IMG/VR virus record: IMGVR_UViG_3300027808_000165
Location: 1 to 24,166 of that record
DNA length: 24,166 nt
From: a virus
Lineage: Duplodnaviria > Caudoviricetes
Direction: 5' to 3' (one strand)
Shown here: positions 5,786 to 23,196 of the stretch, piece by piece
Position numbering within the stretch: the stretch's first letter is position 1
Layout of the letters: each line of letters starts with the position of its first letter
Program-made: the position numbers and the translations under genes
The notes under the pieces: model-generated
What the model saw: the letters and a program-made list of their open reading frames with translations, nothing else
What the model was told of the DNA's origin: nothing
Databases searched by the model: none

Positions 5786-6135
5786 GCTAACTTATTCTTA
5801 AAGTGTGTTATTAACTGCTCCATCTTAGAGTCATAGTATTTCGCAAAGGTAGTAAATCCCTCACTATCAACCTCATAAACTCTAAACATTATACCTCTTA
5901 ATCTTTGAGAAGGTTTCTTTAGTGTATCTTCTAACTCTGATTTAAGTGATTCTACTGCATCCAGCTCCTCACGTCTGAAGCTCTCATCTTTAAATGCAAG
6001 ATAACCGAACTGATTGGCAGTACCGAACAGTTCAGCAGCCTGAGAAGGTGTAAGCTCATTAGTGCCAAAGGTAAGTTTAAGAGTCTTATCTTTCCTTGTG
6101 CCTACTGATTCGAGCTGTGCTGGTATTAATATCAT
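5782..6135 (-). CDS. hypothetical phage protein
   Basis: 117 aa, ATGA-coupled on both sides; KPSQRLRG motif. Confidence 0.7.
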   Translation of the reverse strand: MILIPAQLESVGTRKDKTLKLTFGTNELTPSQAAELFGTANQFGYLAFKDESFRREELDAVESLKSELEDTLKKPSQRLRGIMFRVYEVDSEGFTTFAKYYDSKMEQLITHFKNKLA

Positions 6136-6314
6136 TGAGGTAATCTTTCGTAACTAAAGTACTTTAAAAAGTTGCTCATCATAAAATGAGTGTTAGTGCT
6201 GCCACCTGGTGTATAGTCTTTAGATAAAGCATTATCCATTGCTATGCCTGCAGCAAGTGCTTTCTTAAAGTCTTTGTGATTAGCGTAGTAATCAATAGCC
6301 ATTTGTTTATACAT
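6132..6314 (-). CDS. hypothetical protein (60 aa)
   Basis: ORF whose stop overlaps the next ATG. Confidence 0.55.
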   Translation of the reverse strand: MYKQMAIDYYANHKDFKKALAAGIAMDNALSKDYTPGGSTNTHFMMSNFLKYFSYERLPQ

Positions 6315-6315
6315 G

Positions 6316-6363
6316 ATATTTTTAGATTACAATCGAAAAAAACTATAATATTTTTGGATTACA
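6316..6363. repeat. 16-bp direct repeat ATATTTTTRGATTACA x2
   Basis: 6316-6331 and 6348-6363, 15/16 identical, 32-bp period. Confidence 0.7.
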
Positions 6364-6421
6364 TGTTAAATTATTTACCATAATTCGGTTATTTGTATAA
6401 TTGATTATTGATATTTAACAG

Positions 6422-6571
6422 TTATGATCCACAATAAAGGCAGTCAGGATCCTCAGCTCCCTCTCCAGCATTTAGAATCTTCTCACATTCTTTATCAATT
6501 TCTTTATCTGTGAAGTTAGGATTAAACAATTTCACTTGAGCCCTCAAAAAGTTATACTTATTATCATTCAT
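6422..6571 (-). CDS. 49-aa peptide ending in DCLYCGS (RNR C-terminal tail-like)
   Basis: MNDNKYNFLRAQVKLFNPNFTDKEIDKECEKILNAGEGAEDPDCLYCGS*, with an A-rich start region (ACTACAAATG). Below the ORF-track cutoff. Confidence 0.7.
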   Translation of the reverse strand: MNDNKYNFLRAQVKLFNPNFTDKEIDKECEKILNAGEGAEDPDCLYCGS

Positions 6572-6574
6572 TTG

Positions 6575-6700
6575 TAGTTAAGATTAGTAATATTAGTAAT
6601 AATTTAGTAAGATTAGTACTATAGTTAGTGTAATAAGCTTGAGCTATTAGCTTATAGCAGTTAGCTTATTAGCTAAGCTATTAGCTAAGTTAATTAACAT
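6575..6700. repeat. AT-rich tract with phased TTAG(T/C) repeats (candidate origin element)
   Basis: TTAGT at 6584, 6593, 6604, 6613, 6625; TTAGC at 6647, 6661, 6669, 6681. Confidence 0.55.
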
Positions 6701-6704
6701 CAAC

Positions 6705-6758
6705 AAAAGAAAAGAAAGAAAAAGAAAAAAGGTAAAAAGAAAAAGAAAGAAAAGAAAA
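6705..6758 (+). repeat. perfect homopurine mirror repeat (H-DNA/triplex-forming)
   Basis: Arms 6705-6729 and 6734-6758 are exact mirror images around AGGT. G pairs: 6724/6739, 6718/6745, 6714/6749, 6709/6754. Confidence 0.85.
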
Positions 6759-6890
6759 AGCTCCCCATAAAAACAAACTGCCTCACTCTTAAAAGAGTAT
6801 TTGTGCGATCCAAGCATTGATATTTTGCAAGTGTAGTCATTGGTTACTGAGCTTTGACTTACTCAGGTGAGTGATGTTAGCCATTTCTAT

Positions 6891-6982
6891 AAATAACAAA
6901 ACCCCAAAGAACGTATGCGCCCGTTCAAAGGGGAATTATTAAACCTTAAATCAATAATATGTCTAACAGTAATGATGCGCAT
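6891..6982 (-). ncRNA. candidate leader/attenuator RNA
   Basis: Follows a TATATTTG promoter. Ends in hairpin CCCC-UUU-GAACG(GGCGCAUA)CGUUC-UUU-GGGG plus UUUUGUUAUUU. The loop GCGCAU is complementary to the 5'-end AUGCGC. Confidence 0.5.
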
Positions 6983-6986
6983 GAGA

Positions 6987-6994
6987 CAAATATA
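6987..6994 (-). promoter_or_regulatory. Bacteroidota sigma-A -7 element TATATTTG
   Basis: Exact TAnnTTTG match in an intergenic region; -33 spacing is imperfect. Confidence 0.6.
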
Positions 6995-7030
6995 TTTAAG
7001 ATGCGTTACAAATTCTACCAATGTTAAAAA

Positions 7031-7222: not shown

Positions 7223-7737
7223 AGTTTTTTACGTTTAGCTTTTCTTTTCTTTTGTATTGGCTCAGGAGTGAGCTCTAAGTTAGTTAATTCTATCAATGCT
7301 TGAGCCGATTCTAATTTAGTTAGCTCAGAGATTAGCTGCTGCTCTACATCATCTACATATTTTTTAGCACATGGACCGCAGCTTGTACCAGGGTAATCTA
7401 ACTTAGTGTACTTCTTTCTCAGCTCACCAATCACTTTCATATCTTGGCTCGTTACCTGATTCTTACGCTTTAAAGATTCAATAAAGGCCAGCATGTTCTC
7501 AATTACTAATCTATCATTTAAGATAGGCCATTTCTTAGCTGGGCAATCTTTGACTGCATACATTGCCAAGTGATCTATAGGACAGCCACATGGCTTGAAT
7601 AGATGCCCATTAAGCTCAGTTGGTTTAGCGAATGGATTAATAGCATTAGTAGGAGGCCCACACGTCTTATATCGCGTGTTAAATACTTCGCAGTTATTGC
7701 AGATTTGAATCCTCGCAGCGTAGTTTTCTTTAGTCAT
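7219..7737 (-). CDS. Cys-rich (probable Zn-binding) protein
   Basis: CNNC, TCG, PCGC, CPAKKW, then SCGPC; basic C-terminal tail. Confidence 0.6.
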   Translation of the reverse strand: MTKENYAARIQICNNCEVFNTRYKTCGPPTNAINPFAKPTELNGHLFKPCGCPIDHLAMYAVKDCPAKKWPILNDRLVIENMLAFIESLKRKNQVTSQDMKVIGELRKKYTKLDYPGTSCGPCAKKYVDDVEQQLISELTKLESAQALIELTNLELTPEPIQKKRKAKRKKL

Positions 7738-8234
7738 ATCTGTAGTGAATTTCTAAGTGTTACTTTAGCTTTCTTAATTGTACGATAAAGATAGTTAAGA
7801 GGTATGCCTGTCTCTTGAGCTAACTCTTGGTAGCTGAAATCATCTAATGCATAAAGAAAGAATAGCTCTCTCTCAAAGTATGGCAGCCTGCTGATAAAGA
7901 TATCTAACTGCTCATTCTCTAAGCGCATCCCTACACTTTTGTTTACATCATCAATGATATCATTCTTTAAATCACTTCGTATCTTCTCAAATCTTAAACG
8001 AGTGTAGTTAAATGAGCTGTTACTGCAGCGTGCAGATAGTCTAATAGCATTGCTAACGTAATTGTTTAGCTTACCTCGGTTATGAATATCCTGCAATTTA
8101 TCATTATCACTTTCTAATATCTTCAGCAGCGTATCGTGTAAAAGCTCATCAGCTAAATCTAAACGAGTAACAGTTGCTGCTACTCTGCGCCATTCGGCAT
8201 AGCATCTATTAATTTCAGATGTGTAGGTACTCAT
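7734..8234 (-). CDS. ECF-like sigma-70 family RNA polymerase sigma factor
   Basis: Region 2-like ADELLHDTLLK..YVSNAIR and region 4 HTH LPYFERELFFLYALDDFSYQELAQETGIPLNYLYRTIKKAK. Confidence 0.8.
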   Translation of the reverse strand: MSTYTSEINRCYAEWRRVAATVTRLDLADELLHDTLLKILESDNDKLQDIHNRGKLNNYVSNAIRLSARCSNSSFNYTRLRFEKIRSDLKNDIIDDVNKSVGMRLENEQLDIFISRLPYFERELFFLYALDDFSYQELAQETGIPLNYLYRTIKKAKVTLRNSLQI

Positions 8235-8562
8235 CTATAATTAATTTAGCCTCATCAAAACCTTTACAAATAGCGCAGAAATATCCCCTCTCAGTTAGCT
8301 TCTTATGCCACTCTTTTTGATGTAAGCTTACTACTCCTCCCTTTTCTCGCTTCATCTCAATAGCTAAGCCATGGAAGGCATCACGAGGCTCATAGATGAA
8401 TACATCAGGAAAGCCTTTAACATATCCTGTGCGCTTCATCATAATGGCTTGACGCATTGAAGTTCTAACACCTCCAGCACTCGCACAGTAAAGAGTGCCA
8501 GGATACTGAGCATTAACATAGTTAATAACAGCCTCTTGAATTAGAGCCTCTTCGTTCTTCAT
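8215..8562 (-). CDS. VRR-NUC domain endonuclease
   Basis: EALIQ, GFPDVFI, AIEMK and SLHQKEW (PD-(D/E)xK nuclease). Confidence 0.85.
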   Translation of the reverse strand: MKNEEALIQEAVINYVNAQYPGTLYCASAGGVRTSMRQAIMMKRTGYVKGFPDVFIYEPRDAFHGLAIEMKREKGGVVSLHQKEWHKKLTERGYFCAICKGFDEAKLIIDEYLHI

Positions 8563-8567
8563 GTGCT

Positions 8568-8575
8568 CAAAATTA
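8568..8575 (-). promoter_or_regulatory. sigma-A -7 element TAATTTTG (near-leaderless start for VRR-NUC/sigma operon)
   Basis: TAnnTTTG match 5 nt upstream of the ATG at 8562. Confidence 0.5.
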
Positions 8576-8592
8576 GTGTATTAACTTATCTC

Positions 8593-8624
8593 ATTTGAAC
8601 ATCTTGTTAACATACTTATTCACA
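8593..8624 (+). promoter_or_regulatory. three phased DnaA-box-like nonamers
   Basis: ATTTGAACA (8593), TTGTTAACA (8604), TTATTCACA (8616; matches TTWTNCACA). Confidence 0.45.
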
Positions 8625-8638
8625 TAGCAATTAAGTAA

Positions 8639-8646
8639 TATATTTG
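8639..8646 (+). promoter_or_regulatory. sigma-A -7 element TATATTTG on the non-coding strand
   Basis: Exact TAnnTTTG match; a same-strand terminator starts ~55 nt downstream. Confidence 0.6.
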
Positions 8647-8651
8647 GCTAT

Positions 8652-8733
8652 CCATTTTAGCCTTTTGGTTTAGGCTTATATTGATTATTTGATTACAGGA
8701 TAGGCTTGCAAACGTGCAGGCCTATTTTGTTTT
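8652..8733 (+). ncRNA. candidate trans-acting antisense sRNA (~80 nt)
   Basis: Bounded by a promoter and a terminator; hairpin AGCCU(UUUGGUUU)AGGCU; segments complementary to start regions of phage genes. Confidence 0.6.
8700..8733 (+). terminator. intrinsic terminator (+ strand)
   Basis: ATAGGCTTGCA-AACG-TGCAGGCCTAT stem with a U-G wobble valid only on +, followed by TTTGTTTT. Confidence 0.7.
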
Positions 8734-8791
8734 ATACCCTTTTGCGTATAATTTGAGGATATTAGCAGATATTATACGTTATCGGGTATAA
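8732..8791. repeat. tandem palindromic sites TTATAC-N8-GTATAA x2 (operator-like)
   Basis: 8732-8751 and 8772-8791, 40-bp period, together forming a larger dyad. Confidence 0.7.
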
Positions 8792-8796
8792 TTTTA

Positions 8797-10116
8797 TTAG
8801 ATAAAAGCGTACTTAGTATAGTTCCTATTGAGCTCAAAGTAAGCTCGCATCATTATAGCATCTGCTATATCGGGAGAGATTCCTCCGGTGCGCTGGCTAA
8901 TCGTGTCTTTAGATGTTACTCTTAGCTTTCCTTCCTTATCGGGATCTACTCTTCTAATCAATTCTAACTCTTTGCAGATATCTTCCTGCCATTTGATAGG
9001 GAAAGTAATCTCATTCTTATCTATCAGCTCGCCAAGTCTAAAGTAGCAGTCTGCTTTTAGATTCATGTACTGAGTTCCTCTCACAGCTTTACTGCCATTC
9101 ATAAACTCTCTGCATCTAAGACTATCTACCAAGCCACCGCCTACCCCATCAGCATCGGCAAGCACATTAGATAGCCTAACACTATACTGATTCATTAAGC
9201 GCTGTATCTCTGCCTTAACTTCATCTTGTCGCTTCTGCCTAAGCACTACTATATCAATACAGCTCAATCCTTTCCATACACAAAGCACTGTTCTATCCTT
9301 TCCAAGTCGCGCTATATCTGCTGTGATGTATCCTTCACCTACATTCATAGGCTCTCTAAAGCAGCGCATCAGCTCATCATAAAGATAAAGTCTATCACTG
9401 CTGTTATCAAATTCCCAATCACCCTCTAAGAGTCTCTTTCTATCAGCTTCGGGAAGCCTGCTAAGGCTTGTTACATAAGCTTCGGGTAAGTGTATATTAT
9501 CACCAGGTAGCGCCTGCACAAAAGCAAGGTGATCAGGCAGATTCTGATTCTTGTATGGTAAGTAGAATTGGTTATAGATCCATCCCTTCGAAGGATTGCA
9601 CGTGAGTAGAATCTTTGGCTTAAGTCCAAACTCATTAAGCTTGTACCGGATACGTGAGCACACTACACTGTATGCCTTCTCACTTATCTCTGTAGCTTCA
9701 TCTAAAAATACATCTGTTAGCTCTAATCCCCCAAGGTCCTGATAATGTGGATCTGAGGGGTAAAATTGCAAATCGGCTAAGATTATCTCTGAGCCATTGC
9801 TGAACTTAATAATATGTGATTGCTGATTATAGCTAAAATCTTCTCCTGCTTTCAAGCCGATATCATTAGCTACCTGAAAAAATGTATTCATGGTAGTCTT
9901 TTTTAGAGTGTCTAACTTAGCTCGGCCTATGAGAGATCGTGTACCTGGATACTTTAAGCGCCTAAGAATCTGCCACATGCAGCCTAACATAGTCTTACCA
10001 CCGCCTGCAGCTCCTCCATAGAGGATTGTTTCTACTTGTGAATCTGCTGATAAGAATTTTAAAGCTTCAGATTGCCTTGTTAGTGGCTTAAAATTGTAGT
10101 TTATTTGTCTCTCCAT
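8797..10116 (-). CDS. terL: terminase large subunit
   Basis: Walker A YGGAAGGGKT, Walker B VFLDEA, LTCNP motif III, nuclease acidic residues ADIAR..D and SPDIADA. Confidence 0.93.
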   Translation of the reverse strand: MERQINYNFKPLTRQSEALKFLSADSQVETILYGGAAGGGKTMLGCMWQILRRLKYPGTRSLIGRAKLDTLKKTTMNTFFQVANDIGLKAGEDFSYNQQSHIIKFSNGSEIILADLQFYPSDPHYQDLGGLELTDVFLDEATEISEKAYSVVCSRIRYKLNEFGLKPKILLTCNPSKGWIYNQFYLPYKNQNLPDHLAFVQALPGDNIHLPEAYVTSLSRLPEADRKRLLEGDWEFDNSSDRLYLYDELMRCFREPMNVGEGYITADIARLGKDRTVLCVWKGLSCIDIVVLRQKRQDEVKAEIQRLMNQYSVRLSNVLADADGVGGGLVDSLRCREFMNGSKAVRGTQYMNLKADCYFRLGELIDKNEITFPIKWQEDICKELELIRRVDPDKEGKLRVTSKDTISQRTGGISPDIADAIMMRAYFELNRNYTKYAFI

Positions 10117-11315: not shown

Positions 11316-11344
11316 AATAAAAAAGCCCAGCGTAGTGCTGAGCT
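11316..11344 (-). terminator. intrinsic terminator
   Basis: AGCTCAGC-ACTAC-GCTGGGCT followed by TTTTTATT. Confidence 0.75.
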
Positions 11345-11373
11345 CTTTAAGTTAGTTACTAACACCTATTTGT

Positions 11374-11381
11374 TAGTGGAA
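11374..11381 (-). promoter_or_regulatory. TTCCACTA motif, copy 2
   Basis: Same 8-mer, intergenic, preceded by AATTTC. Confidence 0.45.
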
Positions 11382-11398
11382 GAAATTAGATAATTCAA

Positions 11399-11749
11399 TC
11401 AGAATAGTGCTAACTGCTTTTCTATTACTACCTCTTTACCTGGTATTGCTATCTCACCCATTGCCATAAGAATGCCATCAAATCGGCCATTGTAGTTAGC
11501 TATAATTAAAGCTTGCTTCATCTCCGATTTAACCAATGCTACAGCCTCTTCTTTAGATGCGCTAACATCTTCCTCTTCCCAAGATAAAGGCCTGCTGATA
11601 GTTGTGCTTATACCTTGTATGTGATATGTGCGAGCATAACCATTTTTATTCTTAGCTATTTCATAGTTAGCTAAAACTCCATCAGCTTTATACCACATTG
11701 TATCTGCATTAGTACAGTTACCATCTTCATCATAAATATACTTGCTCAT
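11399..11749 (-). CDS. hypothetical protein
   Basis: 116 aa, ATGA-coupled; ends QLALF, which resembles a beta-clamp-binding QLxLF motif. Confidence 0.65.
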   Translation of the reverse strand: MSKYIYDEDGNCTNADTMWYKADGVLANYEIAKNKNGYARTYHIQGISTTISRPLSWEEEDVSASKEEAVALVKSEMKQALIIANYNGRFDGILMAMGEIAIPGKEVVIEKQLALF

Positions 11750-11940
11750 ATCTTACCCTCCCTAATCTCTATCTTGAAAAGCTCTTTAAGTATTTCTATC
11801 TCATGATCTTTAAAGTTGCTTATGCCCTGCTCGCGCAGACAGTAATTACTTTGCTCTATACCTAACTTGTATGCCAGGTAATCTTGGCTGTATCCATAAA
11901 AAAGCCTATAACATTTAATGCTTCTGTGAAATGATATCAT
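11746..11940 (-). CDS. XRE-family HTH protein
   Basis: IKCYRLFYGYSQDYLAYKLGIEQSNYCLREQG. Confidence 0.8.
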   Translation of the reverse strand: MISFHRSIKCYRLFYGYSQDYLAYKLGIEQSNYCLREQGISNFKDHEIEILKELFKIEIREGKI

Positions 11941-12683
11941 TCTTTCTCTTTGTTTATTTGTTTAATAATGTCAATGTAAATTAATCTACTCAGCTCAATC
12001 TTTTGCAAGCCATCAAATTCAGCTTGTGCAGATTCACCTAAGATAACTTTGTTAGATGCCTTGAATTTAGCCTCTACCTTTTGCTTGGCAATATCTTCAA
12101 AGCGTGCCCATACTTCGGGTGCCCACATAGATTTCTTATAGATGCCACTCTTAAACAGGCGCTGGCAGTTGTAAGGTGCAGATATTTCTACCCAAATTTC
12201 TTTACGCTGATTCCATCTATCCACATCAGCGTACAAAACATTTACAGGATCCGTAGGCTCAGGTCTTTTTATCTCAGCTTCCGGTAAGATGAGCGCCTTA
12301 TTCAGCTCTCTCCATACCTTAGCCTTATACTCTTCATAGCGTTTCAATACATCAGCCATAAATGAGATGCTGAATAGGTTAAAAGCTTCTACTCTTTCAA
12401 AGTCTTTACCTATTGCATTGTACAGGAATGCATTTTGCCAATCTTTAATACTTGTAGTCCGATACGTATTTTGTGTAAGTTGCTGAAGCAGAGTAACTTC
12501 TATGTCTGAAGGTAAAGCTTTAATCGAATTGATTACAGCAGCCTGCGCTATCAGCTCTCTGAACTCCTGCTCATTTAATGTATGCAGCTTAGGTGAGCTA
12601 ATGCATTCAGCAATAGCTCTCTCTTCAGCGCTTAGTGAACGATTGAAGCTCTGCTGTACTGATGCGGCCAATTCTTTGCTCAT
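11937..12683 (-). CDS. hypothetical protein (possible replication/helicase-loader partner)
   Basis: 248 aa helical ORF overlapping the replication-domain gene; function inferred from position only. Confidence 0.5.
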   Translation of the reverse strand: MSKELAASVQQSFNRSLSAEERAIAECISSPKLHTLNEQEFRELIAQAAVINSIKALPSDIEVTLLQQLTQNTYRTTSIKDWQNAFLYNAIGKDFERVEAFNLFSISFMADVLKRYEEYKAKVWRELNKALILPEAEIKRPEPTDPVNVLYADVDRWNQRKEIWVEISAPYNCQRLFKSGIYKKSMWAPEVWARFEDIAKQKVEAKFKASNKVILGESAQAEFDGLQKIELSRLIYIDIIKQINKEKE

Positions 12684-12948
12684 CTTGTATTGTTTTATTT
12701 TGGTTTATCTCACGTGCTCTCCACTGATCTGCAGCTGCTCGCCAGCTCTTCATAGAATTCTTACCTACTTTCCATCCATTAGATTCGTAATGGCAATAGA
12801 ATTTCTTAGCTAAGACTAAATCTTTCAGGTAGTCTACTACATCTGATAGTGATGGGGGTGTGAATTTGGTAGAGGATGCACGCTTTGTTTCAAGCGCTCG
12901 CACCCTTTCCTCAAGCGCTTCTATGCGCTTTAAAAGTATAGTCATCAT
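12625..12948 (-). CDS. phage replication-initiator C-terminal-like domain protein
   Basis: FTPPSLSDVVDY..FYCHYESNGWKVGKNSMKSWRAAADQW motif behind a short coiled coil. Confidence 0.6.
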   Translation of the reverse strand: MMTILLKRIEALEERVRALETKRASSTKFTPPSLSDVVDYLKDLVLAKKFYCHYESNGWKVGKNSMKSWRAAADQWRAREINQNKTIQDEQRIGRISTAELQSFTKR

Positions 12949-12959
12949 TTGGTTTAAGA

Positions 12960-13343
12960 TTATCGATTAGCCAAATATAGTAAGATTCTCTTCCACCAGG
13001 GTAATGCTACAGCTTTTTTTACAGGATTACTCTTTGGCATATTAACTAATCCGAGCATATCAATATCTGCTTTTGATGCCTGAATCTCACTGTAGTATTT
13101 ATTCTTTGCCTCAATAAACTGATTGAACTTATCCTGTCTAAGATGCTTTGCAGCTTCCCACTCACGTAAGCCTACCTTTTTAATAATGCCTACCTCTCTC
13201 ATGAGCTGCAGATATTGCTTGCCCATTCGTTCAGTTCTTAGCGCTGCGCTTGGAGTCATACCAGCGTTAACTAATACGCATACTCTTTTTACTCGGTCTA
13301 TGGTTACCTTACCGGTATCATAGCTAATGGTTAATTGCTTCAT
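12960..13343 (-). CDS. hypothetical protein
   Basis: 127 aa, A-rich start region, amphipathic PWWKRIL tail. Confidence 0.65.
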   Translation of the reverse strand: MKQLTISYDTGKVTIDRVKRVCVLVNAGMTPSAALRTERMGKQYLQLMREVGIIKKVGLREWEAAKHLRQDKFNQFIEAKNKYYSEIQASKADIDMLGLVNMPKSNPVKKAVALPWWKRILLYLANR

Positions 13344-13361
13344 TTGATTATTTGATTTATG

Positions 13362-13850
13362 TTATTTACTTAAACGATTAAATGCTCTATTCAAATCTTG
13401 GTTATCAATATGATTTAATATCTGCTCTACTCCAGCTCTATACATAGCATCGGTTTCTATCAGCCCCTCTACGTGCTTAACTGCATGTAGTACAGTTGCA
13501 TGATGCCGATTAAATACCTTGCCTACATCATAGAAGCTCATAGACGTACCCTTACGAATAATCCACATAGCTATCTGCCTAACATCATTCATTTCACGCT
13601 TTCTACATTTGCCCTTCATCTGATCCCAATCCACCTGGGTAAGATTGCATACAATCTTCATCATGTCATTAGTGAGCTTCTCATTAAGACTCTCTACTTC
13701 TCCGTTAATTGATTGCCAATTTAATTCGGGTATATTACTCTCGTTTACTACTCTAATGATATTATCAATTCGCTTGCGTGCAAAGTGCTGCTGATCTGAT
13801 GGTATCAGCAATATTAAATCTGCTATCTTTCTTTCTAATACGTGGCTCAT
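13362..13850 (-). CDS. stand-alone DnaA C-terminal (domain IV) DNA-binding protein
   Basis: RKREMNDVRQIAMWIIRKGTSMSFYDVGKVFNRHHATVLHAVKHVE fits the DnaA domain IV signature; no AAA+ domain. Confidence 0.85.
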   Translation of the reverse strand: MSHVLERKIADLILLIPSDQQHFARKRIDNIIRVVNESNIPELNWQSINGEVESLNEKLTNDMMKIVCNLTQVDWDQMKGKCRKREMNDVRQIAMWIIRKGTSMSFYDVGKVFNRHHATVLHAVKHVEGLIETDAMYRAGVEQILNHIDNQDLNRAFNRLSK

Positions 13851-14080
13851 TTGCTATCCTTCATTAATTCGATTATGTATGGTATCTCTTCCTCAGTTAT
13901 TGTAGCAAGCTTACCTATGTGCGTTACCTTCATAGTAAATGGCTGCTTAATAAACTTTTGAGCTGTTGGGTAACTTACCTCCAGCACTTCCGCAAAGGCT
14001 GCGACAGTCATAAAATGACTGCGCACCCATGCGTGAAATGGAGTAAGCTTAGAATGGCATTTCATCGTCTGCGCTTTCAT
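13847..14080 (-). CDS. small HTH-like protein
   Basis: TVAAFAEVLEVSYPTAQKFIKQP; the true start may be 14065. Confidence 0.6.
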   Translation of the reverse strand: MKAQTMKCHSKLTPFHAWVRSHFMTVAAFAEVLEVSYPTAQKFIKQPFTMKVTHIGKLATITEEEIPYIIELMKDSK

Positions 14081-14678
14081 TTGTTACTGCTTTAATTTGT
14101 ACTGCTTCTACTTCCTCACCTTTTAACCATGCTAAGAATATCTCAGCTGTATCTAACACATCACCTGGCTTACTACCCTTAACATCTTTGCAGAATAGCA
14201 CAGCATTGTTTAGAGCTACTGATTTAGAAATAGAGTTCTGAACATCCGGGCTTTCTTTGCGGTAATTAGAGCCGCTATTCACCGCACCGCTTGGAGCAGC
14301 TGCAGTACCTGAATACTGCATTGGATTCTGCATTTTAAAGTTAGTGCTCTTCTTGCCTGTTGGGCCAGTGCGCTCTTCGCTTGTGTAGTGAATGGTAGCG
14401 CCTACTGCTATCTTAGGGCTTTTCATATCCTTTACACCAATCTGCCCTACTTCATTTAAACCATTATTTGACTCTACTACCAAATCAAAATAATAGATTG
14501 TGCCGCTTGGGCCATTCCAATCTCTAACAAATTTCTGACTTTTAACAATTCCTTGTTTCATAACTGTGTTGTTTTTATTTATGTATTTACTTAACTTATC
14601 TGCTAACTTTTCTTCCTGCTCATCCCAATCAATAGTTGGCTTAAGCTTATCCCAATTAGGCTCTCTTGTGTAACTCAT
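14049..14678 (-). CDS. putative single-stranded DNA-binding protein
   Basis: OB-fold-like beta region, flexible linker and acidic aromatic tail ADDEMPF. Plausible starts at 14678 and 14561. Confidence 0.6.
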   Translation of the reverse strand: MSYTREPNWDKLKPTIDWDEQEEKLADKLSKYINKNNTVMKQGIVKSQKFVRDWNGPSGTIYYFDLVVESNNGLNEVGQIGVKDMKSPKIAVGATIHYTSEERTGPTGKKSTNFKMQNPMQYSGTAAAPSGAVNSGSNYRKESPDVQNSISKSVALNNAVLFCKDVKGSKPGDVLDTAEIFLAWLKGEEVEAVQIKAVTNESADDEMPF

Positions 14679-14811
14679 CAGGATTGTTTTGAAAGTATGA
14701 GCGCCAGCTCTCATAGACTATCTTTTCTGCTATTTGATTGAACTCTAACTCCTCTCCCGGTAGTGAGCTTTGTACGCAGATGAATCTGCTGTTGTAACGA
14801 TCAAATAACAT
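14656..14811 (-). CDS. hypothetical protein (51 aa)
   Basis: MLFDRYNSRF...; ATG at 14811 overlaps the end of the upstream gene. Confidence 0.55.
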   Translation of the reverse strand: MLFDRYNSRFICVQSSLPGEELEFNQIAEKIVYESWRSYFQNNPDELHKRA

Positions 14812-15031
14812 AGCGGTCAGACATAAAATAGTCATGTATATTCTCTTCGCCTTCACTTTCGAATTGAAATAGGAAAGTGCCATCATCAGGAAATACTTCC
14901 CCATGTTTTTTAGCTGTTGAGAAATCAGTTAGAGAGTAGCTGTGAGCATTTGTGTACAGCTGCCATTTGCATCCTTCGGCATCCCACCGAGATACGATTA
15001 CCTTACCGGTAACATTGTTTGGTTTGTTCAT
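14801..15031 (-). CDS. hypothetical early protein
   Basis: 76 aa, start region AATAATCAAATG. Confidence 0.65.
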   Translation of the reverse strand: MNKPNNVTGKVIVSRWDAEGCKWQLYTNAHSYSLTDFSTAKKHGEVFPDDGTFLFQFESEGEENIHDYFMSDRYVI

Positions 15032-15058
15032 TTGATTATTAATTAAGTTGCTAATATA

Positions 15059-15295
15059 CTAAATTCTTTTTATACTAATTACTACCTCATCATTTTCCCA
15101 CTCATACAGTGCGCCTTCGTTGTATTCATTAATCCACACTGGCGTATAGTCGAACTTGTAGATCTTCATGAGTAATGGTAGCATCTGCTGCGCTATTTCC
15201 CACGTATCTGCTATGAATAGGTTAGCAGTTCCTAAGCGCTCAGCTATAGAGATTTGCACCTCATCTAATGGGGTAACAGTTACATGGTATTTCAT
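15059..15295 (-). CDS. hypothetical early protein
   Basis: 78 aa, ATGA-coupled. Confidence 0.65.
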   Translation of the reverse strand: MKYHVTVTPLDEVQISIAERLGTANLFIADTWEIAQQMLPLLMKIYKFDYTPVWINEYNEGALYEWENDEVVISIKRI

Positions 15296-15474
15296 AGCTC
15301 TACCTCCTTACTTAGTAATACAGTCTTAGTAGGTATCCAGGTGATAGCTTCCTCATACTCAGCCTTAGCCTCTTCAAAGGTGCTAAAAGATTTAACATAG
15401 CTGCCATCAATTTTAAGATAGTAGCGTGTGCCATCATATTTGGCTTGCTCTTCAATTTCAAATAGTTTAGTCAT
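15292..15474 (-). CDS. hypothetical early protein
   Basis: 60 aa, coupled to its neighbours. Confidence 0.65.
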   Translation of the reverse strand: MTKLFEIEEQAKYDGTRYYLKIDGSYVKSFSTFEEAKAEYEEAITWIPTKTVLLSKEVEL

Positions 15475-15476
15475 GA

Positions 15477-15593
15477 TTATTTATAATTTATATTGGTTTC
15501 TATTTTTTCTAACTCTGCTGTTTGCGCATCGAATGTGCCAGCAATTAACATTCCTGCGAAGAGGACTAAGATGATGAGTAGTGCTTTTTTCAT
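15477..15593 (-). CDS. 38-aa membrane/secreted peptide, first gene of the early operon
   Basis: MKKALLIILVLFAGMLIAGTFDAQTAELEKIETNINYK*, directly after a consensus promoter. Confidence 0.65.
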   Translation of the reverse strand: MKKALLIILVLFAGMLIAGTFDAQTAELEKIETNINYK

Positions 15594-15616
15594 TTGCTTA
15601 TTTGATTTAATTTTAG

Positions 15617-15647: not shown

Positions 15648-15694
15648 AAAAACCTTACTAATTATAGCAAAGTTATTAACAATAAATTGTTAGC

Positions 15695-23188: not shown

Positions 23189-23196
23189 TAGTGGAA
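23189..23196 (-). promoter_or_regulatory. TTCCACTA motif, copy 4
   Basis: In the 29-nt gap before the protease gene. Confidence 0.5.

Follow-up and report, generated by a model that had tools for sequence, protein, structure and literature searches.

What is the function of a short unit that lies between two genes of a phage and is oriented against all of them? The window analysed here, that is the whole stretch of 24,166 nucleotides of the viral record IMGVR_UViG_3300027808_000165, is a 24-kb fragment of a tailed phage, and its minus strand holds all recognisable genes. Complete relatives have genomes of 29.6-31.3 kb. The cultured terminase nearest to that of the window belongs to Flavobacterium phage 11b (46%). 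Among terL relatives in genome contigs, the best are Flavobacteriales records, many others are from Bacteroidota, and several other phyla are represented too. Because of these relatives and the TAnnTTTG promoters, the sequence points to a host in the Bacteroidota. The original prediction took positions 8639-8733 for the candidate gene of a small RNA that would silence early and replication genes. This unit sits in a 234-bp intergenic gap (8563-8796) between the following genes of the terminase and the VRR-NUC nuclease, the latter being followed by a sigma-factor gene:

8797..10116, minus strand: terminase large subunit gene (terL; PF04466), predicted leaderless
8215..8562, minus strand: VRR-NUC nuclease gene (PF08774, E 5e-7)
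7734..8234, minus strand: phage sigma-factor gene (PF08281; phrog_1740)

The unit consists of these parts:

8639..8646, plus strand: sigma-A -7 box of Bacteroidota type, TATATTTG, with a predicted start at about 8651
8651..8733, plus strand: predicted small RNA of about 83 nt, with a better fold on this strand than on the minus strand in 60/60 units
8659..8676, plus strand: hairpin 1, whose loop (8664-8671) is seed 1, UUUGGUUU, the complement of AAACCAAA
8681..8694, plus strand: seed 2, predicted to be mostly unpaired, read in RNA as UGAUUAU(U)UGAUU and complementary to AAUCA(A)AUAAUCA
8700..8733, plus strand: intrinsic terminator with stem 8700-8710/8715-8725, loop AACG and T tract 8726-8733

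In Flavobacterium, the TAnnTTTG box is located at -12 to -5 (PMC9723704, in part), and therefore the start would be near 8651 and the RNA about 83 nt long. The promoter and the strand-specific terminator of the original prediction were both recovered: TATATTTG is at 8639-8646, the plus strand from 8646 forms a small hairpin, an open stretch and the long terminator with its T tract (z = -4.5), and the terminator has a G-U pair on the plus strand only. There are 8 plus-strand TAnnTTTG octamers in the window in all. The promoter of the RNA gene has no -33 element, and a DnaA-box-like 9-mer stands in its place. A scan for sigma-70 promoters and terminators gave counts at chance level and missed the long terminator. 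An alternative hairpin at 8646-8662 was rejected because it starts 5' of the predicted transcription start. In Rfam 15 the unit matches no family at the gathering score; the best match, rseX, reached 25 bits against a cut-off of 50 and was regarded as chance.

A terL search gave 135 matching viral loci, and 80 of them were taken for comparison. The unit, whose recurrence in related phages the original prediction had proposed as a check, is present in 74 of these 80 loci, and the remaining 6 are truncated by contig ends before it; since the relatives are close kin (terL 87-100%), these and the following unit counts are non-independent samples. Locus L221 is almost identical to the window. Although the gap can be as short as about 165 bp or as long as 515 bp, the order and spacing of the unit are constant. 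Among 60 distinct units, drawn from all retrieved loci, the -7 box is TATATTTG in 37, TATCTTTG in 22 and TATCTTTA in 1, and 59 share the same 8-nt loop. The stem of hairpin 1 occurs in 11 variants, with G-U on the plus strand in 13/60 units and changes on both sides in 4/5 pairs. The terminator stem also has 11 variants, every one more stable on the plus strand, with 97% of cells paired and 3 pairs changed on both sides. In a covariation alignment of the window and 32 of the 60 distinct units (n=33), 97.5% of the cells in the stems of the whole unit are paired and 7/16 pairs have changed on both sides; the covariation score was reached by 0/500 shuffles, and slid controls were only 18-53% paired. 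The loop has a column identity of 1.0 and seed 2 one of 0.97; the segments that flank seed 2 have 0.55-0.69, and the stem arms and linkers as a whole 0.55-0.72. The 5' segment, which had also been regarded as an anti-start match, does have its octamer match at 1341-1348, but the octamer is not conserved among relatives and was rejected as a seed. A conserved cassette of promoter, hairpin, seed and terminator, opposite in strand to all phage genes, is very likely to make an RNA of about 83 nt.

Outside this clade, four motif patterns searched in viral contigs returned only the same clade among the matches listed. A strict scan of 132 loci with terL of 28-59% identity gave 4 antisense promoter-terminator units, none resembling this unit; the scan covered flanks of up to 10 kb, some on contigs of mixed gene orientation, and does not establish absence in distant phages. 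Other short antisense promoter-terminator units, unrelated in sequence, are seen in the distant phages L495 (near 6835) and L536 (near 7029).

It may be asked whether the minus strand is the working one. The region would then supply terL read-through RNA with decoy copies of the early leader motifs, be what is left of a gene start together with the mini-ORF, or contain binding sites that act as DNA, and the leader motifs would be protein or polymerase signals instead of pairing sites. We give this explanation little weight. The G-U pairs, the T tract and the promoter all indicate the plus strand, and the stem that holds the loop covaries. The minus-strand mini-ORF, the conservation of which in place of the plus-strand unit had been named as the contrary case, has no ATG in 10/67 units and varies from 6 to 22 aa. 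In favour of the minus strand, the sequence resembles an early gene start when read on it, some minus-strand ATG is retained in 57/67 units, which is only partly explained, several targets lie directly behind -7-like boxes, and one contig of RNA run X4 reaches 8627. Comparison of the units supports the view that the conserved feature is a plus-strand non-coding unit and not the mini-ORF.

In 9 lake metatranscriptomes, 0.05-0.08 of the window words were present. No contig of 7 RNA runs spans 8651-8733, and assembled contigs cannot reveal an RNA of about 80 nt; one short piece from an RNA run touches 8725-8759. RNA contigs end at 8544-8548 with no loose end in 6/7 lake runs, and the contig of X10, a run of unrecorded type, continues. 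These ends, from runs that may share one campaign, weakly suggest that a 5' end is located near 8562.

The two seeds find their complements in front of early genes, as follows:

15594..15607, minus strand: leader of the first early gene (15477-15593), 13/14 match to seed 2
15474..15482, minus strand: leader of gene 15292-15474, 9-nt match
15018..15040, minus strand: colinear complements of both seeds, across the leader and first codons of gene 14801-15031
13344..13357, minus strand: leader of gene 12960-13343, 14/14 match to 8681-8694, abutting the ATG at 13343
12948..12979, minus strand: own -7 box and leader (about 19 nt) of gene 12625-12948, both seed complements in antiparallel order
12698..12707, minus strand: weaker target upstream of gene 11937-12683, 10-nt loop match, variable in relatives

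Every match quoted in the original prediction is present, namely 13344-13357, 15594-15607, 15032-15040 (9 nt, in the leader of gene 14801-15031), 15474-15482, 12698-12707, 12948-12956 (9 nt, to the loop) and 1341-1348. The site at 13344-13357 is the best seed-2 site of the window and ranks top at -14.8 kcal/mol. The first early gene is located behind a full TTTG-N19-TAnnTTTG promoter. In the leader of gene 12625-12948, TAAACCA is kept in 47/47 and TAATC in 45/47 relatives, and its -7 box is conserved. The label of replication genes that had been given to 12625-12948 and 11937-12683 was not borne out, as they have no Pfam match and no named PHROG match, and the Atlas gave a DnaT lead at only 0.76.

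Target regions were defined as -22..+8 of 12 early starts (11399-15593) and were compared with 10 middle and 19 late starts; the starts were taken from a seed-blind tiling, from which four dubious ones (6982, 6817, 4755, 24131) were dropped before the statistics. At early starts, 0/500 dinucleotide shuffles paired as well as the seed segment 8677-8697 or the whole body, whereas 126-429 of 500 did as well at middle and late starts, where there is no enrichment. The expected concentration of matches at gene starts over shuffled controls was found, for the early class. For the loop the expectation held in part: outside the unit, 4/5 mRNA-strand copies of the complement of the loop 7-mer are near early starts (2.3% of the strand), but on duplex energy alone the loop is equalled by 29 of 500 shuffles, which is not significant. 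When intramolecular folding was included, mean early binding was matched by 22/60 and 40/588 shuffles and was not significant, and the early-minus-other contrast was reached by 1/588 shuffles. Across 25 relatives in which both regions are available, the target motif, chosen from the seeds, precedes 133/363 early and 4/423 other starts; the contrast exceeds the null mean in 25/25 relatives, but at most 5 of 100 shuffles reach it in just 14/25. About half of the early starts are addressed (5/12 carry the motif and 6/12 pair at -7.5 kcal/mol or better), and several of the unmatched early genes overlap the preceding gene. Most of the predicted duplexes are rich in A-U pairs, and at -8 to -10 kcal/mol they are weak.

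Could the main targets be host mRNAs with similar A-rich leaders, so that the RNA serves host shut-off and the match to the phage is a by-product? Host mRNAs had been mentioned as further targets. In two Bacteroidota proxy genomes (200 kb each, with roughly called starts), the motif occurs at 6-7% of starts, and 3/168 and 4/150 starts pair at -10 kcal/mol or better. The motif is found before 11/168 and 9/150 of these proxy starts as against 5/12 phage early starts (133/363 in the relatives), and it is nearly absent at other phage starts. This, together with the fact that the seed and its own leader change together, makes host shut-off an improbable main function.

Three other features of the coding strand were observed. 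A 10-nt complement of seed 2 at 6400-6409, 85 nt upstream of gene 6132-6314, is a possible non-early target, and the start of this gene also pairs at -10 kcal/mol. Gene 14801-15031 is preceded in 32/32 sequences by a variant -7 box, TAnnTTAG (about 15050-15060, minus strand), which may be an internal early promoter. Stretches of GGAGG like Shine-Dalgarno sequences, unusual for Bacteroidota, are found on the minus strand upstream of overlapping early genes (before 15295 and 11749), and these genes have no target motif of the small RNA.

Seed 2 has a long and a short form, one base apart, and the spacing in the first early leader agrees with the form of the seed in 26/27 genomes when scored with a pattern anchored in the leader. 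All long forms are in one terL clade, which amounts to one change on the tree and one exception (L019). With three early leaders, the RNA of the same phage pairs better than a swapped RNA does (1, 5 and 4 of 5000, the latter two for the leaders of genes 14801-15031 and 12960-13343); these permutation counts are non-independent, since on the terL tree the indel covariation is a single change. In this test the rows for the first early gene of L004, L070 and L061 were mis-assigned, which diluted the count. The leaders of genes 15292-15474 and 12625-12948 gave no signal (2087 and 4272 of 5000).

The RNA probably pairs with and represses the early mRNAs of its own phage. Repression is proposed because the duplexes would lie over positions from about -14 to -1, and in this phylum it is upstream adenines, when left unpaired, that initiation relies on and is promoted by (PMC6847099, in part). 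In Bacteroides, FopS-10 pairs close to the start codon and so blocks translation (PMC11697453, in part).

When would the RNA be made? The gap and the early region contain the following elements:

8604..8612, plus strand: DnaA-box-like 9-mer 1, TTGTTAACA or TTATTCACA, 28 nt from the divergent -7 box, in 75/81 sequences
8616..8624, plus strand: DnaA-box-like 9-mer 2, which reads TTATTCACA or TTATGCACA and precedes the -7 box of the RNA gene by 14-15 nt in these 75 sequences
15673..15681, plus strand: DnaA-box-like 9-mer upstream of the early promoter, kept in the early promoters of the listed relatives
8568..8575, minus strand: divergent -7 box, TAATTTTG, of the predicted leaderless VRR-NUC/sigma transcript, 4-5 nt before the ATG in 75/75
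13362..13850, minus strand: early gene of a DnaA C-terminal helix-turn-helix protein (PF08299, E 3e-19)

We take the 9-mers at 8604, 8616 and 15673 to resemble the DnaA-box consensus. Their pattern occurs 4 times in the window: two in the gap, one at the strong early promoter and one within a gene. The protein of gene 13362-13850, a candidate binder of these 9-mers judging from its domain, is 162 aa long; its match is restricted to the C-terminal DNA-binding domain of DnaA, and its PDB matches are DnaA chains only. Among the same phages, VRR-NUC alleles are 66-98%, DnaA-domain alleles 51-100% and terL 87-100% identical, and the boxes are unchanged. At terL, TAnnTTTG is exactly 4 nt before the ATG in 80/81 sequences. 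Since the -7 boxes are 4-5 and 4 nt before the starts, the VRR-NUC and terL mRNAs are predicted to be leaderless, a class that is rare in Flavobacterium (5.5%; PMC9723704, in part).

From these elements we propose the following order of events. Host sigma-A polymerase would transcribe the RNA from about 8651, and its loop and single-stranded stretch would pair with the short A-rich early leaders so that their translation is blocked. The promoter of the RNA lacks the -33 element and has two DnaA-box-like sites in common with the nuclease/sigma operon, so the early DnaA-domain protein of the phage, or host DnaA, might turn on the RNA and this operon together, and therefore early translation would stop at the onset of the late programme. 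With no leader predicted for them, the mRNAs of the nuclease and the terminase would escape the RNA. A -7 box on its own could also fire from the start of infection, which is a point against a timed switch. Timing by the DnaA-domain protein is accordingly put forward only tentatively. A role in lysis or dormancy, which the original prediction had considered, has become less likely because the tyrosine integrase (PF00589) is found in 0/5 complete relatives. No integrase or antirepressor was found among the window proteins scanned with Pfam and PHROG, and no close prophage in GTDB genomes. It is conceivable, and in our opinion somewhat doubtful, that this non-integrating phage passes from early to late expression by means of an RNA, with a shared leader as the address and the DnaA-domain protein firing a divergent pair of promoters.

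The same RNA with the same targets may instead be present as soon as infection begins and set a threshold for early expression or dampen it, or its main use may be superinfection exclusion, through the early genes of a second, related phage. The host sigma-A -7 box of its promoter fits either use. The loop target is invariant across the clade and thus any relative would be hit, and STnc6030 is a precedent of a phage antisense RNA that excludes superinfection (PMC12197685, in the part available). The better pairing of the RNA with its own leaders than with swapped ones, however, points to self-regulation and not to a weapon against kin, and the -33 element is replaced by conserved boxes common to the divergent operon. 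We regard this alternative as rather unlikely.

DnaA-box-like sites also raise the question of whether the phage replicates from here with the help of DnaA, the region being an origin or a primer unit and the short RNA serving replication. Two such sites are present beside AT-rich DNA, and the phage has a DnaA-domain gene. There is no change of skew at the unit, whereas the skew flattens at 6001-7000; the phage protein, with its 162 aa, matches the C-terminal DNA-binding domain only; and the complementarity to early leaders is left unexplained. An origin at this place is thus very improbable. An AT-rich intergenic stretch at 6570-6900, with short ACTAAT- and AGCTAA-type repeats and flattened GC skew, is an origin candidate.

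Several further elements were seen in and near the control region. Between the terminator and terL (8734-8796), the relatives have a hypervariable mosaic of 1-341 bp, absent in 13/56, which is made of recurring imperfect palindromes of 16-35 bp and has no ATG-started ORF over 47 aa (examples are L010:2710-3060, L025:2897-3250 and L073:4837-5180). An array of decoy sites for protein binding is one possible reading of this mosaic, and a set of recombination modules is another. The motif TTCCACTA, a candidate element for the phage sigma factor, is located in intergenic DNA on the minus strand at 23196, 22571, 11381 and 4634, before three structural genes and a terminator near 11345, and words like it occur on the opposite strand in the palindrome mosaic of the relatives. 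At 11320-11385 (minus strand), a conserved terminator 20-50 nt after TTCCACTA closes the early block; this pair is possibly a second tiny RNA or an attenuator.

Taken together, a trans-acting small RNA with multiple targets that represses early translation is, in our judgement, probably the best explanation of this locus. If this is true, the leader sequence would double as an address for regulation in a system that lacks Shine-Dalgarno pairing. The idea can be tested cheaply, as natural compensatory variants of seed and leader exist, the RNA has 83 nt and the leaders 19 nt.

Which known systems does the unit resemble? FopS and GibS of Bacteroides thetaiotaomicron, a host of the same phylum that has no Hfq, come close in the portions of PMC11697453 and PMC7366714 that were available. 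Like the unit, they have a single-stranded seed and an intrinsic terminator, together with a promoter of the sigma-A type (FopS) or two seeds (GibS), and they have several targets, pairing at the initiation regions of the first genes of operons. They are, however, host RNAs for glycan-use genes, with one FopS copy seen in a phage, whereas the present unit is phage-encoded and single-copy, has early genes of its own phage as targets, and displays one seed in a hairpin loop. In a comparison by description, it was not assigned to FopS/GibS, and it has no Rfam 15 match at the gathering score.

The available part of the review PMC12197685 describes small RNAs of enteric, Vibrio and Pseudomonas phages, most of which have a single gene or the host as their target; neither 'Bacteroid' nor 'Flavobacter' occurs in this review. 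OOP, aQ, sar, sas, PreS, VpdS and 24B_1 share with the unit the post-transcriptional tuning of phage development, but they are cis-antisense to one gene, Hfq-dependent, aimed at the host or linked to the lysis-lysogeny decision (PMC12197685, in part). The present unit is not cis-antisense, as it is intergenic (8563-8796) and its targets are 4-7 kb away. A phage RNA aimed at the shared leader of its own early class was not found in the portions of the literature available, PMC12197685 included.

The c4 antisense RNA of P1/P7 is similar in size (about 77-80 nt), acts in trans on mRNA of its own phage and exposes two segments; it has three stem-loops, is cut by RNase P from a precursor and serves immunity and lysogeny (PMC5320573, in part). 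The unit differs in that a single hairpin is followed by a terminator, that it has a promoter to itself and about six targets, and that its phages show no tyrosine integrase. The C4 model gave no Rfam match up to E 10, and the integrase count (PF00589, 0/5 complete relatives) does not indicate that the unit is part of a temperate immunity region. We presume that the P4 CI RNA belongs with c4 as a similar system.

The RegA and RegB proteins of T4 shut off early mRNAs via a motif at initiation regions. They are like the unit in the post-transcriptional shut-off of an early class, and differ in that they are proteins and not a pairing RNA. Sigma factors, anti-terminators and nucleases are the usual explanation of temporal control in lytic phages. 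If an RNA does address an entire class of genes via a motif in their leaders, this would be a different way to time infection.
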